Shown: positions 2,723 through 47,049 of the stretch, piece by piece
How the letters are laid out: each line of letters opens with the position of its first letter
How positions within the stretch are numbered: the stretch's first letter is position 1
Source: a virus
Length of the DNA: 64,000 nucleotides
Reading direction: 5' to 3' (one strand)
Virus record (IMG/VR): IMGVR_UViG_3300035146_000036
Notes under the pieces: generated by a model
What the model was told of the DNA's origin: nothing
The model's database searches: none
What the model saw: only the letters and a program-made list of their open reading frames with translations
Translations under genes and position numbers: made by a program

Positions 2723-4060
2723 ATGTTAGATACAGTCAAAGATTTTGCAAATAAGTATTTTAAATGTTTTCCTGTATATCTTGTAGGAGGGGGTGTCATA
2801 GATTATCTTTGTGATCGTATTCCAAAAGATTTTGACATAGAAATTTATGGTTTATCAATAGACGAAATTTCAGACATATTAAAATCCAATGGTTTTGACG
2901 TTAATTTTGTTGGGGCAAGTTTTGGAATAATCAAGACAGTATACAAGAATATTGATTTGGATATTTCTGTTCCCAGGGTAGATAATAGAATTGGGAAAGG
3001 TCATAAAGGATTTGATTGTTCTTTTCCTTCCAATATTTCGCCGAAAGAAGCGTCAAGAAGAAGAGATTTGACGATTAATTCAATTTTTTTAGATCTTCAT
3101 ACTTTGGATATTCATGATCCATGGGGAGGAGTTGAGGATTTAAGCAAGGGTGTGCTGAAAGCAACTGATTCAACAACATTTATTGAGGACCCGTTGAGGG
3201 TGCTTAGGGTTATGCAACTGTTAGCAAGGAAGGGAAAAAGTGTTGATTCAGATACTGTTGACTTATGTATTAGTATGGTCGATAGTTTTGTTGATTTGCC
3301 CCAAGAAAGAGTTTTTGAAGAGTTTGTGAAGCTTTTTAGTGCTAGTCGTCCATCAAAAGGGTTAAGGTTTTTGGTAGATTCAAATTGGATTTTTTGTTTT
3401 CCAGAGTTGGAAAGCCTTATTGGATGTAAACAACATCCAGAATGGCATCCAGAAGGAGATGTCTGGGAACATACTCTAAGAGTTGTTGATTGGGCAGCTA
3501 AAGAGAAAGAAAATTTGGATGAGGATTGGCGTTTGGCGTTCATGTTTGGGGCATTGCTACATGACATTGGGAAGCCAGTGGTTGTGTCTGATGATTTTAC
3601 TTGTCATGGCCATGATTTGGCTGGAGAGCCATTGACTAGGTCATTCATGGAAAGGATTACAAGGGATAAGGAACTGATTGATAGAGTTGTTTGTATTGTT
3701 AGAAATCATATGAGATGTGGACAACTTAGTTTTGGCGATGCTAAGAAATCAGGATGGAAGAGATTACATAATGACCTTAGGTTGGATGTTGTAGCATTTC
3801 TTTCTAAGTGTGATTCATTGTCTAGATATAGTGAAGAATATGTATCAGGAATGGAATATGAGCCAAGTATGGTTGCTTTGCAGTATTTTGATGAATTTGG
3901 GAAAAAGCCAATTAAGCCTGTATTGATGGGGAGACATTTGATTGATGCAGGAATGAAGCCTGGCCCAGAGTTTGGTAAGATCTTGGATAGGGCATATGAT
4001 ATCCAAATTGAAGACGGAATTTCTTGTCTAGACACATTGTTGAGGTTGGTTAATGGGTGA
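2723..4060 (+). CDS. cca: CCA-adding tRNA nucleotidyltransferase with HD domain
   Basis: Pol-beta NTase head GGGVIDYL..DFDIEI; RRDLTINS motif; HD motif LLHDIGK; 445 aa. Confidence 0.8.
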   Translation: MLDTVKDFANKYFKCFPVYLVGGGVIDYLCDRIPKDFDIEIYGLSIDEISDILKSNGFDVNFVGASFGIIKTVYKNIDLDISVPRVDNRIGKGHKGFDCSFPSNISPKEASRRRDLTINSIFLDLHTLDIHDPWGGVEDLSKGVLKATDSTTFIEDPLRVLRVMQLLARKGKSVDSDTVDLCISMVDSFVDLPQERVFEEFVKLFSASRPSKGLRFLVDSNWIFCFPELESLIGCKQHPEWHPEGDVWEHTLRVVDWAAKEKENLDEDWRLAFMFGALLHDIGKPVVVSDDFTCHGHDLAGEPLTRSFMERITRDKELIDRVVCIVRNHMRCGQLSFGDAKKSGWKRLHNDLRLDVVAFLSKCDSLSRYSEEYVSGMEYEPSMVALQYFDEFGKKPIKPVLMGRHLIDAGMKPGPEFGKILDRAYDIQIEDGISCLDTLLRLVNG

Positions 4061-37104: not shown

Positions 37105-38085
37105 GTGGATTATAGTAAAGAAGCGATAGATAACACTATCTTGAAGGTTAGAGTAGGATCTCATTTATTTGGGACAAATACAGAAGATAGTGATTTAGAT
37201 ATTGAAGGTATTTTTATGCCTCCAATATCTGTTTTATATGGTTTAGGGGAATGCAAGGAGGTTGATTTAAGTGAAGCATCAAAGGATGAAAAGGGTCGGA
37301 ATACATCTGATGCTATAGATTTTAAATTGAGAGAATACAGGACATTTATGCGATTAGCTATTCAGAATAATCCTAATATTTTGAATATTGTTTTTTCAAA
37401 TGATGAAAATGTTATTTTTCAAGACGAATTTGGAGAGCGATTGAGGGGAATGGCAGAGTATTTTCCATATAGAGATGGGTTAAGAAGGTATTATGGATAT
37501 GCTCAATCTCAATTGCAGAAAATGACTATTAAGCCAGATAATTATTCTTATTTAAACAAAGCGTTGGATTTTTTATCTGGATGTAATCAAAAAGCTATTC
37601 TTGTTGATGTAATAAGATCAAAATGTAATCCATTGGCTAGAGTGTTTATTGATAAGGGGCCTGGTAAGCATGTTGTTGTTGCTGATTTGCATTGTGAAAG
37701 GGGACTTCAAGTAGGAAAAGTTGTATCGATGATTAATGGTAGATTAGAAAGGGCTAGTTCAAGAGCTGATAATTGGGAAAGATTTGGATATGATGTGAAA
37801 TTTGCATCGAATTTGATTCAGATTTTAAAGCAAGGCATAGAGCTTGGTAAGACTGGTGTACTTAAATTTCCATTAGGATATAGAGATTTGATTCTTGATA
37901 TAAAGAAAGGCAAGTTTAAGTTATCTGAGGTTGATAATATGGCTACAGATTTGATTGAAGAAATGATTTCTATTATAGAGGGTGAATGTTGTTTGCCAAA
38001 GAAGCCTAGAAGGTTGGAAATTGGAAATTTCACTATTATTGAAGTAAAGAAATGGTGTGACAAGCAGTTTGTTAGTTGTCATTGA
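37105..38085 (+). CDS. Pol-beta superfamily nucleotidyltransferase-fold protein (GS-x11-DxD)
   Basis: VGSHLFGTNTEDSDLDIEGIF matches the NTase motif GS...(D/E)x(D/E) found in CD-NTases and MNT-type enzymes; 326 aa. Confidence 0.5.
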   Translation: MDYSKEAIDNTILKVRVGSHLFGTNTEDSDLDIEGIFMPPISVLYGLGECKEVDLSEASKDEKGRNTSDAIDFKLREYRTFMRLAIQNNPNILNIVFSNDENVIFQDEFGERLRGMAEYFPYRDGLRRYYGYAQSQLQKMTIKPDNYSYLNKALDFLSGCNQKAILVDVIRSKCNPLARVFIDKGPGKHVVVADLHCERGLQVGKVVSMINGRLERASSRADNWERFGYDVKFASNLIQILKQGIELGKTGVLKFPLGYRDLILDIKKGKFKLSEVDNMATDLIEEMISIIEGECCLPKKPRRLEIGNFTIIEVKKWCDKQFVSCH

Positions 38086-38131: not shown

Positions 38132-38147
38132 GCGAACTCGAGTTCGT
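38132..38147. promoter_or_regulatory. palindrome copy 8 (GCGAACTCGAGTTCGt)
   Basis: 15/16; directly upstream of TTGACA promoter 38155. Confidence 0.7.
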
Positions 38148-38217: not shown

Positions 38218-38664
38218 GTGATGGGTAATAAGATTGTGATTTGTCCATATTGTGGAAAGAAGGCTGAATTAAAAACTGGCAGAGAAATATATTTGGGTAG
38301 GGGTTCTTGGGATGGTAAAAAGTTTTGGGTTTGTGAGCCTTGTAATGCTTGGGTTGGGTGTCATGACCGAAATAAGAGATATGGGCGTGTTGGTGATGAA
38401 CCATTAGGTAGACTTGCTAATAAAGAGTTGAGAGAAGCGAAGATGAAAGCTCATTTGGCATTTGACCCTATTTGGAAAGAGAAAAGTATGAAGCGTAAAG
38501 AGGCTTATGCATGGCTTGCTAAGAAGTTAGGAATACCTGCTGAGGAATGTCATATAGGAATGTTTGATGTAGACATGTGTAGAGAAGTGGTAATAGTAAT
38601 GTCTGATTATTCGTTAGTAGTTGCAAATGCAATTTGTGGGCATCAACTTGGGAAATTGGAATGA
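38218..38664 (+). CDS. zinc-ribbon domain protein
   Basis: CPYCGK...CEPC..W.GCH. Confidence 0.5.
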   Translation: MMGNKIVICPYCGKKAELKTGREIYLGRGSWDGKKFWVCEPCNAWVGCHDRNKRYGRVGDEPLGRLANKELREAKMKAHLAFDPIWKEKSMKRKEAYAWLAKKLGIPAEECHIGMFDVDMCREVVIVMSDYSLVVANAICGHQLGKLE

Positions 38665-38879
38665 AAATGTCTAATAATAAATATAGGCTAAATATTGAAC
38701 TTACAGATCAAGTAATGAAAAGATTGAACAAATTAGTTGTGGAAAGTGATTCAAGTTCTAAGACTGATGTTATTAGAAAATCGCTTGCTTTATATGAGAC
38801 AATAATGCGGATTCGAAAAGAAGATGGACAAGTTATATTATTATTAAGAGACGGAAATCAGATGGAATTGGTATTTTAA
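38634..38879 (+). CDS. ribbon-helix-helix-like small DNA-binding protein (likely start ATG 38657)
   Basis: YRLNIELTDQVMKRLNKLV resembles the RHH beta-strand + helix. Confidence 0.4.
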   Translation: MWASTWEIGMKMSNNKYRLNIELTDQVMKRLNKLVVESDSSSKTDVIRKSLALYETIMRIRKEDGQVILLLRDGNQMELVF

Positions 38880-38950
38880 ATAGGAGTGTCATATTATGGT
38901 GGTTTGACAAGGAAACAACGTAATAAATTAGAGCAGATCTATGATTATTT

Positions 38951-39151
38951 TTGGGGAGTTTATTAATGGAAACAAATGAACAATTTTATAATGATATTGA
39001 TAAAGCAAGAGAAGAAGGAAAGATTAGTTTAACAGAATGGGAGATTGATTTTATTGATTCAATTGGTGAACGATTGGATATGGGACGTGATTTATCCAGG
39101 AAACAGCGTGAAACGCTGGATAGAATTCATGAAAAAATAAGACCATGGTAG
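38951..39151 (+). CDS. hypothetical protein
   Basis: ORF track. Confidence 0.45.
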   Translation: MGSLLMETNEQFYNDIDKAREEGKISLTEWEIDFIDSIGERLDMGRDLSRKQRETLDRIHEKIRPW

Positions 39152-39630
39152 ATGATAAATATTTAATAGATGCAGCTGTTAGAATACTTGCATCTGTTTC
39201 TGATAGACACCTTGATGTGATTAAGCTTAATAAAATTCTTTTTTATCTTGATTTGAAATCATTGCTTGAGTGTAGTGAAACAGTAACTCATAAAGATTTT
39301 ATTGCAATAAAGCAGGGGCCAGTAATTTTAAATTACAGAAAATGTCTTGTTGATTCTATGAAAGAAAAAGGTTTGATTGTTGTTGAAGGTGATACGTTAA
39401 TATTGTTGAACAGGACAGGTTTTGATGGGAAATTTTATTCTGATGAATTTTTATATGTTTTAGACCTTAGCAATGATGATTCTTTTTGGGATTGGTATAA
39501 AGAAAATATTGGTTGGCAGATTGCATATAGAGAGGGATTAGGAAGAGGGAGGAAACCACAATTTATTAATATGCATTTGGCTATGCAACAGATAGTTGAT
39601 GATAATTGGAGGTATGAAAATGTTGAATAG
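39145..39630 (+). CDS. Panacea-domain (DUF4065/SocA-like) protein
   Basis: LNKILFYLDLKSLLECSETVTHKDFIAIKQGPVI matches the Panacea core (KL.KLLY..D.......G.P...E.F.A...GPV). Confidence 0.55.
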   Translation: MVDDKYLIDAAVRILASVSDRHLDVIKLNKILFYLDLKSLLECSETVTHKDFIAIKQGPVILNYRKCLVDSMKEKGLIVVEGDTLILLNRTGFDGKFYSDEFLYVLDLSNDDSFWDWYKENIGWQIAYREGLGRGRKPQFINMHLAMQQIVDDNWRYENVE

Positions 39631-39799
39631 AATAAAGAATTTTTTTGGTAGAATTATTTGTATGTGTGTTGGTTGCAAAATGGATCGTGATGTTTCTATA
39701 GTCGAGGAGTGGAAGTGTACTAGGTGTGGATATCATCATAAGAAGATTGAGTGGCCAACGGTAGATGTAAATTATAATCATTTTGATGATGCAAGTTGA
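39596..39799 (+). CDS. zinc-ribbon protein
   Basis: CVGC...CTRCG. Confidence 0.45.
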   Translation: MMIIGGMKMLNRIKNFFGRIICMCVGCKMDRDVSIVEEWKCTRCGYHHKKIEWPTVDVNYNHFDDAS

Positions 39800-39805
39800 G
39801 ATAAT

Positions 39806-40018
39806 ATGAAACCTATTATAAAAGTAAGTGGTGAAGTTATTACTATTAAAGAGTTGAAGGATTTTGTAAAAGATTTACCAGAAAAAGATAGTTATACTGG
39901 TGATGATTATGAAGTATGGATTGGTAGAGGAAATATATCAAATCCATGTAGACAATTATGGACATTAAATAAGAGTGACCGTGGTTGTGATATTTTATTG
40001 AGTGATGATGTTGGTTAA
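39806..40018 (+). CDS. hypothetical protein
   Basis: ORF track. Confidence 0.5.
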   Translation: MKPIIKVSGEVITIKELKDFVKDLPEKDSYTGDDYEVWIGRGNISNPCRQLWTLNKSDRGCDILLSDDVG

Positions 40019-40042
40019 AGTAATTATTGGAATAGCAATTAA

Positions 40043-40282
40043 ATGAGTACCGTGAAGATAAAAAATGATGCTGATCTAAAAAAAGCTTTTAATCGTCTCG
40101 ATGAAATTTGGACATCAAAGCCAGGTGAAGAGAACTGGGAAGAACGTTGTGACTTGGTGGACAAGATTGAACAATATGAGAATTTGACTGTTGATATTTC
40201 TCCACCAAATCCGGTTGATGCGATTCTTTTTAGAATGGAGCAAAGTAACCTGCTTTTGGAGGTGATTAATAATGAAAAATAA
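40043..40282 (+). CDS. HigA-type antitoxin N-terminal domain protein (stand-alone)
   Basis: IKNDADLKKAFNRLDEIWTSKPGEENWEERCDLVDKIEQYE matches the HigA N-domain pattern (I.tE.dYe.Al..i..L...pgt.e.d.L..L..LIe.YE). Confidence 0.5.
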   Translation: MSTVKIKNDADLKKAFNRLDEIWTSKPGEENWEERCDLVDKIEQYENLTVDISPPNPVDAILFRMEQSNLLLEVINNEK

Positions 40283-40520
40283 TGAATTTGGTAGGCATCT
40301 AAATGCTATCCGCATTAGCAAAAATATAAGTCTTGATGAATTAGCAAATGAAACCCAAATAGCTTCATGGGTTTTATGGAGTTATGAAGAAGGGAAGGAA
40401 ATTCCTAAAAAACCTAAAGTGCATGCGATAGCAAGAGCATTAGGTTGTGATGCTAGGAATCTTTTGGATTCAAGGAAGTATTCATTAGCGGAGAAACGGA
40501 GAAACAGCAATGAAATTTGA
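40272..40520 (+). CDS. XRE-family HTH protein (possible C-terminal half of a split HigA-like regulator)
   Basis: FGRHLNAIRISKNISLDELANETQIA...IPKKPKVHAIARALGCDARNLL = Cro/C1-type HTH; overlaps the previous ORF by 11 nt in another frame. Confidence 0.5.
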   Translation: MKNNEFGRHLNAIRISKNISLDELANETQIASWVLWSYEEGKEIPKKPKVHAIARALGCDARNLLDSRKYSLAEKRRNSNEI

Positions 40521-40776
40521 GGAGAACAAATCAATAGGGCATAAGGAAGGGGATTTTTTTATTGGTGGAAAGATGGTAACAGTACCAATTCCTCAATGGG
40601 AGAACACCTCACAAGGTGATGCTATACGTTGTAAAAGAAGAGCAAGTGGTATTACATTGAGAAGAGCTGCATCTATGATAGGAATAACTGGTACAGAATT
40701 GACAGGGTTAGAGATAGGGAAATATAGTATTTCAGAAGATGATTTTGATGATATTATGAGAAAATTGAGTGAGTAA
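40510..40776 (+). CDS. XRE-family HTH protein
   Basis: ITLRRAASMIGITGTELTGLEIGK HTH. Confidence 0.45.
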   Translation: MKFEENKSIGHKEGDFFIGGKMVTVPIPQWENTSQGDAIRCKRRASGITLRRAASMIGITGTELTGLEIGKYSISEDDFDDIMRKLSE

Positions 40777-41573: not shown

Positions 41574-41765
41574 ATGTTATTGAAAATAGATAAAAATGGT
41601 ATTTGGGATTTAGACAGAGGATGTTATATTGTATGGACAGGTTTGGATGCAAGGTTGCATTGTTTAGGTGATAAAATTGAAAAGTTGAATGATTGGTTTG
41701 CTGATGTCTGTAGAAAACATCCTATCAATATTGAAGACGATAAAAACGGGGGTAGTATCTCTTGA
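41574..41765 (+). CDS. hypothetical protein
   Basis: ORF track. Confidence 0.45.
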   Translation: MLLKIDKNGIWDLDRGCYIVWTGLDARLHCLGDKIEKLNDWFADVCRKHPINIEDDKNGGSIS

Positions 41766-42072
41766 GTCAGAAGTAGTATTTTTGATTGAAGAAAAATTTA
41801 AAGAATTTGGTATTAAATATTCAAAAGAAGTTTTTTTATCTAAAGGATGCAGAGTAGATCTTTTGACAGAAGATGGGATTGCTATAGAAGTAAAAAAGGG
41901 CAAGCCAAATACAAGATCTGTATCAATGCAAATTAAAAGATATGCGAGTAGTGATAAAGTAACGGCTGTAGTTCTTGTATCTGAGAGGGGATTATTTAGT
42001 CATATAACAGAAGCAAATGGCAAACCGATTGGGTATGTTTCATTATCATCGAATTGGGGAGTAGCTTTATGA
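41689..42072 (+). CDS. possible PD-(D/E)xK nuclease-fold protein (start uncertain, maybe TTG ~41763)
   Basis: GCRVDLLTEDGIAIEVKKG resembles a D...E.K restriction-endonuclease-like core; overlaps the previous ORF. Confidence 0.3.
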   Translation: MIGLLMSVENILSILKTIKTGVVSLESEVVFLIEEKFKEFGIKYSKEVFLSKGCRVDLLTEDGIAIEVKKGKPNTRSVSMQIKRYASSDKVTAVVLVSERGLFSHITEANGKPIGYVSLSSNWGVAL

Positions 42073-42191: not shown

Positions 42192-42207
42192 GCGAACTCG
42201 AGTTCGC
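42192..42207. promoter_or_regulatory. palindrome copy 9
   Basis: Exact; 15 nt before ATG 42223. Confidence 0.7.
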
Positions 42208-44901: not shown

Positions 44902-45216
44902 GTGAAGCATTTAATTTTTACTGCAAAATACAACAGATTGATATCTAATAATGAAATTTTATCTATATTTCATGGTGCTTGTGAAAAAGCTAATGCTCAT
45001 ATTAGGCGTTCTATTGAATATTCATTTTATCCTGGTGGTTTTACAGCGGTAGTTATATTAGCTGAGAGTCACGCATCAATTCATACGTGGCCAGAAACCG
45101 GATTGATAAGGGTTGATTTCTTTTCTTGTTCTATGTCTCCAAATTTTGATGATTTTACAGATTATTTTAGGGAAAGTGGATTTATTGTGAACAAAGTTGA
45201 TATTTTGGAGAGATGA
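44902..45216 (+). CDS. speH: S-adenosylmethionine decarboxylase proenzyme (pyruvoyl-dependent, SpeH/SpeD-type)
   Basis: LAESHASIHTWPE contains the ES self-cleavage site and TWPE hallmark; about 100 aa small archaeal/Bacillus-type form. Confidence 0.7.
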   Translation: MKHLIFTAKYNRLISNNEILSIFHGACEKANAHIRRSIEYSFYPGGFTAVVILAESHASIHTWPETGLIRVDFFSCSMSPNFDDFTDYFRESGFIVNKVDILER

Positions 45217-45627: not shown

Positions 45628-45978
45628 GGGGTCGATTTGGTTTCGACATTTGACTAGATTGATATTATGCATGTTCCGCTTTGGGTATTCAGCGGATTAA
45701 AAAGAATGCTTGAATACAATCGTCAGACATAACGATAGCCAAGTTTGGGCTGAAGCTGCCTAAACCGTCCAAGTGCTGATTGCCTGTGTAGGTATAAGGG
45801 CGTCATTTTTACAGGATAGTGACCATTTTTCATGGGAAATGGTGAGCGAAAATGACCATGAAGAATTTGTATGTAGTTGTCTATCATTGCATGCAAATTA
45901 TTTAGATAGACTAAACATGTGAAGATTAATATTGAGATGTCTAAATGGACTGGGGTTCGATTCCCCACGACTCCAACT
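45628..45978 (+). ncRNA. ssrA: tmRNA (ssrA-like), tag approx (A)NDSQVWAEAA
   Basis: 5' GGGGUCGAUUUGGUUUCGAC matches the tmRNA 5' consensus GGGGnnGAUUnnGGnUUCGAC; 3' T-arm CUGGGGUUCGAUUCCCCA + acceptor CGACUCC pairing with 5' GGGGUCG; tag ORF aac gat agc caa gtt tgg gct gaa gct gcc TAA at 45731-45763, about 100 nt from the 5' end as in E. coli (ANDENYALAA); CCA not encoded. Confidence 0.75.
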
Positions 45979-46675: not shown

Positions 46676-46750
46676 TCGGGATGTAGCGCAGTCTGGTTAG
46701 CGCACTTGATTTGGGGTCAAGGGGTCATAGGTTCGAATCCTATCATTCCG
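46676..46750 (+). tRNA. tRNA-Pro (anticodon UGG)
   Basis: Acceptor CGGGATG/CATTCCG (C1-G72 as in bacterial tRNA-Pro), D-arm GCGC-AGTCTGGTTA-GCGC, anticodon arm CTTGA-TTTGGGG-TCAAG (UGG), T-arm ATAGG-TTCGAAT-CCTAT, discriminator A, no encoded CCA. Confidence 0.8.
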
Positions 46751-47049
46751 ACGAGGAGCAGCCTCAAAACTGCAATATAGGTGAAAGTCCTTAAGGATGT
46801 TAACGATGTGAGAACATTTAAGTGTTGTTTTCCTCTGGCGAATTGGCTAAGTCATGAAACCACAAGGCATCCTTGCCACTGTTGCTGTGCAGTATCACAG
46901 TGTCTATGTCCTATAATCAGTTTGTTTTAGAAGACGTTCTAGACAAAGATGAATAAGGAGTAGACCGGGTTTGCTGATTGTCCGAGAAACGAATTAGACC
47001 TATATGGAGTGAGCCATACAGCTTGGTGCGATGCCAGGCATTTAAATAT

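Follow-up and report, generated by a model that had tools for sequence, protein, structure and literature searches.

Antitoxin-like genes without a detected toxin partner among the backbone regulators of an uncultivated phage: candidates for counter-defence

Introduction

Two phage products reportedly defeat abortive infection by toxin–antitoxin (TA) systems, namely the Dmd protein of T4, which is said to act against RnlA/LsoA, and pseudo-ToxI of phage phiTE, which is said to be an antitoxin mimic. Phage anti-defence operons have controllers of their own in the form of the Aca-type helix-turn-helix (HTH) regulators. Among the bacterial antitoxins, HigA of the Escherichia coli K-12 type (YgjM; PDB 5IFG, 6KML, 5YCL) is the partner of HigB of family PF09907, and a HigA-like protein is likewise part of PD-lambda-2, an experimentally validated abortive-infection defence that combines a HigB-like protein A with a protein B made of a HigA-like HTH and an M78 peptidase; in this system protein B is toxic and protein A rescues (Vassallo et al., 2022; PMC9519451). 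Toxins of many types are neutralised by Panacea domains, which bind them directly, and the paper that describes this also cites T4 Dmd as a phage antitoxin (Kurata et al., 2022; PMC8832971). The present study deals with a run of small genes at positions 38634-40776 of a stretch of 64,000 nucleotides (nt; the window) that belongs to the approximately 158-kb genome of an uncultivated phage (IMG/VR record IMGVR_UViG_3300035146_000036). Three of these genes resemble antitoxins, as they encode a ribbon-helix-helix (RHH) protein, a Panacea/DUF4065-like protein and, in open reading frame (ORF) 6, a homologue of the N-terminal domain of HigA. We propose, at roughly even chances of being right, that they are accessory orphan antitoxin fragments which lie among backbone regulators and which may serve as counter-defence against TA abortive infection.

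Compared with E. coli HigA, ORF6 is homologous to the N-terminal helical domain and the first HTH helix, but it is phage-encoded, ends shortly after the motif FRMEQSNL and thus comes without the DNA-binding HTH. Moreover, no higB gene adjoins ORF6 or was found elsewhere in the window, whereas its cellular relatives directly follow HigB genes. The same part of ORF6 corresponds to the N-terminal ~70 residues of PD-lambda-2 protein B. In contrast to that three-component system (A, B and the Beta_protein C), the genes examined yielded neither the HTH and the peptidase nor an A or C component, and no Peptidase_M78 or Beta_protein domain was detected in the 28 ORFs scanned with Pfam. The idea that protein C of PD-lambda-2 might itself be a Panacea protein was rejected, as the supplement of PMC9519451 assigns it to PF14350 (Beta_protein). 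The Panacea-like protein has, with 161 amino acids (aa), the typical length of a single-domain PanA, and its N-terminal third matches PF13274; it differs from PanA in that the score lies just under the cut-off, the remainder of the domain finds no counterpart and no cognate toxin gene was seen in the window. As phage genes without a toxin partner that are proposed to neutralise host toxins, ORF6, the Panacea-like gene and the RHH gene would resemble dmd and pseudo-ToxI. However, Dmd is unrelated in sequence to the host antitoxin, whereas the genes described here are recognisable antitoxin homologues or fragments. Finally, two small HTH genes, ORF7 and ORF8, are situated at the downstream end of the run of small accessory genes in a way that recalls Aca regulators; unlike these, they belong to the backbone and are retained by relatives without the accessory genes, and a scan for such control found neither an operator-like inverted repeat nor a significant promoter.

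Results

Three antitoxin-like genes are accessory

The interval 38634-40776 contains eight tightly packed genes on the plus strand, both in the ORF listing and in independent gene calls from the Joint Genome Institute (JGI) and Logan on identical or near-identical contigs, and not the five consecutive small genes of the preliminary description. Overlaps between neighbouring genes are the rule across the whole phage. A search of the INPHARED collection returned no close relative of the phage DNA.

Conservation was assessed by comparing 18 proteins of the window with the related sequences L173/L174 by tblastn. The genes for RlaP, DUF3268, ORF2, a zinc-ribbon protein, ORF5, ORF7-ORF13, ORF15 and an SNF2 helicase are all kept there in the same order, at 41-86% identity. 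What L173/L174 lack are exactly the three antitoxin-like genes, i.e. those for the RHH protein (38661-38879, 72 aa, with the start as called by JGI), the Panacea-like protein (39145-39630, 161 aa) and ORF6 (40043-40282, 79 aa), together with the small ORF14. At the place of the missing Panacea-like gene, ORF2 directly abuts the zinc-ribbon gene. In the closer relative L170 (about 86-100% identical), all three antitoxin-like genes are present and ORF5 is absent. The three genes are intact in all haplotypes and match the phage in composition, with a guanine-plus-cytosine (GC) content of 28-36% and a GC skew of 0.28-0.45; as they share the unusual composition of the phage, they cannot have arrived very recently. 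By this comparison, the RHH, Panacea-like and ORF6 genes are accessory genes among backbone regulators.

ORF6 is related to the N-terminal domain of HigA

Taken alone, the ORF6 sequence matches nothing in Pfam or NCBIfam or among the sequences of the PDB, and a word-indexed homology search found near-identical proteins only. An exhaustive HMMER search yielded 221 relatives, the full-length members of which carry the N-domain, then FRMEQxGL and then a characteristic HTH. The profile of these relatives matches the solved HigA proteins of E. coli and Shigella (5YCL, 5IFG) at an expectation value (E) of 3e-12, collinearly and over both domains. The PADLOC model PD-Lambda-2_B matches ORF6 directly (E 3.3e-11, positions 6-73 of 402) at its N-terminus. 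In addition, ORF6 matches phrog_11202 and, end to end, the 66-position phrog_10398, and JGI annotates a 95%-identical protein as HigA. By these sequence matches, ORF6 is truly homologous to the N-terminal domains of two proteins, HigA of the E. coli K-12 type and protein B of PD-lambda-2, and the earlier assignment of ORF6 to the HigA N-domain can thus be upheld. The chain stops 9 residues past FRMEQSNL, which represents the first HTH helix, and therefore includes no DNA-binding HTH. An alignment-based AlphaFold model consists of three helices with a mean predicted local distance difference test score (pLDDT) of 81.5. The ribosome-binding site of ORF6 itself is weak.

The family has a clear setting in bacteria. 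The bacterial loci were scanned with a narrower N-domain alignment, as the broad one was too diverse. Full-length forms of 115-131 aa were found in 78 of 80 loci, and in 57 of the 80 a HigB-like ORF lies immediately upstream (local phmmer); when upstream ORFs were sampled, seven of nine were confirmed by Pfam as PF09907 HigB (E 1e-24 to 1e-36). In bacteria, the ORF6 family is hence the canonical HigA antitoxin beside HigB. Relatives of ~400 aa with a Peptidase_M78 domain are present among both the HMMER and the viral matches, and most of the IMG/VR matches, which look like prophages, are either full-length HigA or such a ~400-aa HigA-peptidase fusion.

Stand-alone forms like ORF6 occur on phage-like contigs. 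Four such relatives (P0002, P0004, P0006 and P0012; 79-94 aa, 49-62% identical) end soon after FRMEQ and are encoded on the contigs L007, L008, L010 and L175 without an adjoining HTH gene. Their surroundings differ: the gene adjoins a DNA methylase and DUF5131 in L007, lies among ParB_N and DUF5661 genes in L008, follows a cytosine methylase in L010, a 75-kb viral contig, and has small genes and a dCMP deaminase around it in L175.

No toxin partner was found in the window

In all six frames of the 64-kb window, no HigB-like ORF could be found (best E 1.6). None of the neighbours of the antitoxin-like genes matches a toxin family or a defence model in Pfam, NCBIfam, PHROG or PADLOC. The genes that flank each antitoxin-like gene are kept where it is missing, and hence none of these neighbours behaves like a toxin that depends on it. 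This applies in particular to the Panacea-like gene, since a conserved two-gene operon with a toxin was not seen and its neighbours, ORF2 and the zinc-ribbon gene, are retained in L173/L174. The designation as a TA cluster in the preliminary description is consequently not supported, and ORF6, the RHH gene and the Panacea-like gene are orphan antitoxin-like genes with no toxin partner in the window.

ORF6 and ORF7 are separate genes

An N-domain and an HTH in one chain are the usual architecture of the HigA family, and ORF6 and ORF7 (40272-40520, 82 aa) overlap in different frames beside an A-run. It therefore had to be considered that the two ORFs are one HigA that was split by a frameshift, be it as a pseudogene, through a sequencing error or as a programmed +1 frameshift. 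The overlap had been described correctly, as it comprises exactly 11 nt (40272-40282) with ORF7 in the +1 frame. A sequencing error that fuses the two ORFs is excluded, however, because the junction is free of indels in eight independent assemblies that represent three haplotypes. In two of these haplotypes the ORF6 stop is changed from TAA to GAA, which extends the ORF by 3 nt to a TGA, and this variation of the stop and its context speaks against the conservation of a shift site that depends on the stop. Furthermore, when the full-length relatives of ORF6 were used to build a profile for their HigA-type HTH, it matched nothing in ORF7, ORF8 or any downstream frame. It recognises only FRMEQSNL at the end of ORF6. 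A hypothetical fusion adds nothing to the match, and it would duplicate the first helix.

ORF7 also has the attributes of a gene in its own right. A Shine-Dalgarno sequence GGAGGTG, read from the sequence at 40258-40264 within the 3' end of ORF6, sits 7 nt before its ATG (the corresponding region in L170 reads GGGAGGTG). Its homologues are stand-alone proteins, all of 76-88 aa and 71-94% identical, without a fused ORF6-ORF7 form among them. In L173/L174, where ORF6 is absent, there is an 11-nt overlap between the ORF7 homologue and the end of the ORF5 homologue, and in L171, which also lacks ORF6, the gene before a homologue of 76% identity is an unrelated, cysteine-rich ORF of 63 aa that is overlapped in a like manner. 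Since ORF7 overlaps various preceding genes, the overlap is a property of the ORF7 start, as in translational coupling, and not the scar of a frameshift. Together with the stand-alone ORF6-like genes that no HTH gene follows, these observations largely refute the notion of a split HigA, which we regard as extremely improbable. Of the three options that had been put forward for this junction, neither the frameshifted pseudogene nor the programmed frameshift stands, and ORF6 and ORF7 are, on sequence grounds, the genuine two-gene arrangement.

Properties of the RHH and Panacea-like proteins and their neighbours

The RHH protein passes the Pfam model RHH_1 (CopG family, PF01402) with 21.9 bits against a gathering cut-off of 20.5 (E 1.6e-4), which confirms the domain call made earlier, and it also matches phrog_8557 (E 1.3e-9); no relatives were found among PDB sequences. 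Its start overlaps the stop of the upstream DUF3268 gene (ATGA).

The call of a Panacea domain stands in part. The 161-aa protein matches SocA_Panacea (PF13274) at an E of 3.1e-5, yet its 25.3 bits lie 0.4 bit under the cut-off of 25.7 and the match covers profile positions 1-43 of 113 only, i.e. the N-terminal third. Similarly, phrog_1281 is matched (E 3.3e-6) over residues 7-65 only. A word-indexed homology search returned near-identical proteins only, no PDB relative was found and a single-sequence AlphaFold model (pLDDT 36) was unusable.

The remaining small genes between these two and ORF6 belong partly to the backbone. ORF2 (38966-39151, 61 aa), a backbone gene that is 85% identical in L173, and ORF5 (39806-40018, 70 aa), which is present in L173 and not in L170, have no assigned function and no family match in Pfam, NCBIfam or PHROG. 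The zinc-ribbon protein (39620-39799, 59 aa, CxxC...CxxC), likewise a backbone gene product and 64% identical in L173, gives weak zinc-ribbon matches in Pfam only. At the place of the RHH gene, L173 has a tandem paralogue of ORF2 of 77 aa, located upstream of it (3071-3304 and 3329-3514), and the two proteins share the motif LTxWExxFxDSI...LxxKQRxxL.

The regulators ORF7 and ORF8

The XRE-family HTH attributed to ORF7 is confirmed by three Pfam models above their cut-offs, namely HTH_19 (PF12844; 30.7 bits versus 30.2), HTH_31 (PF13560; 28.6 versus 27) and HTH_3 (PF01381; 25.7 versus 23). The domain is complete, with all five helices, and is matched from residue 5 onwards. For ORF8 (40510-40776, 88 aa), which had been described as a second XRE protein, the evidence is divided. 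The match to HTH_31 remains below the cut-off (E 2.4e-4; 21.8 bits versus 27), whereas the HTH core AASxxGxTGTELTGLEIGKYS is invariant in L170, L173 and L001, and a short HTH protein, with the domain at residues ~36-86, is thus plausible. No similarity between ORF7 and ORF8 was detectable by BLASTP and the idea that they are paralogues was dropped. Among PDB sequences, ORF7 has no relatives and ORF8 insignificant ones only (best E 0.097). From their sequences, both are best described as ordinary small phage transcription regulators of the backbone.

In L171, a 25-kb contig, a 69-aa protein with an Acb2_Tad1_hairpin domain, which marks a family of anti-CBASS/anti-Thoeris sponges, is encoded at 1439-1648. 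This gene lies 2.4 kb upstream of the ORF7 homologue, and both are part of one run of small genes that share their direction.

Palindromes, composition and other features of the window

A 16-bp palindrome, GCGAACTCGAGTTCGC, is present in the window in 12 copies where none is expected (positions 75, 7030, 12428, 18294, 23005, 29763, 35272, 38132, 42192, 49483, 54236 and 61338), always in the same reading direction and ~3-7 kb apart. Some copies are located inside ORFs, and behind several of them comes a ribosome-binding site with a start codon; the copy at position 75 is followed by a good TTGACA-17-TAAAAT promoter. Two copies, each of the form GCGAACTCGAGTTCG(C/T), bracket the co-directional gene block discussed here, one at its upstream edge (38132-38147) and the next at its downstream edge (42192-42207). 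The palindrome is kept at syntenic sites in L170 and L173/L174, and this conservation extends to relatives at 60-85% protein identity. As L173/L174 have no RHH gene, the RHH protein is not needed for the conservation of the palindrome, and it is possible that ORF7 and ORF8 are its binders. A scan for sigma-70 promoters and terminators gave no excess of sites over shuffled sequence.

The window has a GC content of 34%, and nearly all long ORFs lie on the plus strand. The strand asymmetry is extreme, as the GC skew ranges from +0.21 to +0.57 in every 1-kb bin and amounts to 0.41 overall (positions 1-64000 in each case). According to precomputed Pfam annotations of identical contigs, the window further encodes an 884-aa protein with an MVP_shoulder (major vault protein) domain (30675-33329), a 60-aa prepilin-type N_methyl protein (about 36226-36408), the RlaP nucleotidyltransferase (37105-38085) and an AdoMet-decarboxylase-like protein (44902-45216). 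A 127-aa ORF at 41689-42072, which overlaps a 63-aa ORF at 41574-41765, shows a weak Cas4/PD-(D/E)xK nuclease-like match below the cut-off (PF01930, E 0.002). ARAGORN predicts a transfer-messenger RNA-like gene with the tag peptide VRHNDSQVWAEAA (45628-45975) and a tRNA-Pro(TGG) (46677-46752).

Discussion

The question arises what the advantage of antitoxin-like genes without toxins would be for the phage. From our point of view, the orphan antitoxin fragments, when expressed during infection, could bind host toxins that are otherwise released as the labile host antitoxins decay, and could hold them inactive. They could be directed at RNases of the HigB family, at PD-lambda-2-type systems of HigB and HigA-peptidase, and at those toxins that Panacea domains neutralise. 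ORF6 in particular would represent a HigA N-terminal module without DNA binding, aimed at HigB-family RNases or HigB/HigA-peptidase systems. Translation of ORF7 begins from its own Shine-Dalgarno sequence, at a start that overlaps whichever gene precedes it, as in translational coupling.

Several points weigh against this proposal. Toxin binding by ORF6 and a role in counter-defence are drawn from homology and may not apply, and a host HigB or PD-lambda-2-type system is no more than the presumed target. The N-terminal domain of HigA is reportedly the part that binds HigB, in the structure of Yang et al. 2016 (PDB 5IFG); the HTH of E. coli HigA is known to be C-terminal. For PD-lambda-2, the effect of a free N-domain is uncertain and not obvious, as protein B is the toxic partner. 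Although the seven best PDB folds for the ORF6 model are all HigA, the statistics are weak (E 0.6-2.7, TM score 0.46), and a profile cut to the N-domain alone reaches HigA at an E of 0.88 only, which is why the assignment depends mainly on the PADLOC model and on the relatives of full length. In the haplotype L001 (942-1184, P0001), a residue of ORF6 that hardly varies across the family is exchanged (Y45C), along with three other changes in 79 residues, and this could reflect relaxed constraint; the small numbers of synonymous and non-synonymous changes between close haplotypes do not suffice for testing selection. The Panacea identity of the 161-aa protein is, with its sub-threshold score, probable. 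Lastly, the toxin search covered 64 kb of the ~158-kb genome.

A different possibility is that genuine TA pairs of the phage, at least one of them, are present in the cluster, such as the Panacea-like gene with ORF2 or the zinc-ribbon gene, or the RHH gene with a neighbour, which would act in addiction or superinfection exclusion. Panacea and RHH domains are typical parts of antitoxins, PanAT pairs occur in phages (PMC8832971) and the genes overlap as those of TA pairs do. We nevertheless consider this very unlikely, since no neighbour matches a toxin family or a PADLOC model and overlaps are found throughout the phage. Moreover, ORF2, the zinc ribbon, ORF5, ORF7 and DUF3268 persist in L173/L174 without their antitoxin-like neighbours, which is unexpected for a toxin.

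ORF6, and perhaps the RHH and Panacea-like proteins, might also have been domesticated as interaction modules for the internal regulation of the phage, with no connection to host toxins; ORF6 could, for example, pair with ORF7, ORF8 or some other regulator or counteract it as an anti-repressor. The position of ORF6 directly before two HTH genes, its translational coupling to ORF7 and the retention of the first HTH helix (FRMEQ) would fit such a role. ORF7 and ORF8, however, function in L173/L174 without ORF6, and the other stand-alone relatives of ORF6 have no HTH neighbour, so that we regard internal regulation as rather unlikely. One could also speculate that the antitoxin-like genes are functionless, decaying remnants of captured host TA genes. 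The truncation of ORF6 relative to cellular HigA, the Y45C exchange in L001 and the weak ribosome-binding site all point in this direction. On the other hand, the ORFs are intact in all haplotypes, their composition (GC 28-36%, skew 0.28-0.45) is that of the phage, and the truncated form is met again, at 49-62% identity, on four or more phage-like contigs that are unrelated, and is represented among the PHROG families; decay is, in our judgement, quite unlikely.

Counter-defence by orphan antitoxin fragments hence remains the reading that we prefer, and the label anti-defence-like in the preliminary description is a reasonable hypothesis. This reading can be extended, though doubtfully, beyond the present phage. 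The stand-alone HigA N-domain proteins (ORF6, P0002, P0004, P0006, P0012 and phrog_10398) might form a recurrent phage anti-defence family that sponges HigB toxins or disarms PD-lambda-2-type systems, and the RHH, Panacea-like and HigA N-domain genes might then make up an exchangeable counter-defence cassette.

Overall, the present study corrects the annotation of the locus, in which the adjoining ORFs with a HigA N-domain and an XRE HTH are not a broken gene, and it provides with the ORF6 family a sequence family for searching other phages. TA systems are now seen as common abortive-infection defences, and few phage countermeasures against those of type II are known. An antitoxin N-domain that has shed its DNA-binding half and is encoded by an accessory gene of a phage would be an uncomplicated way to obtain such a countermeasure, and one that lends itself to testing.

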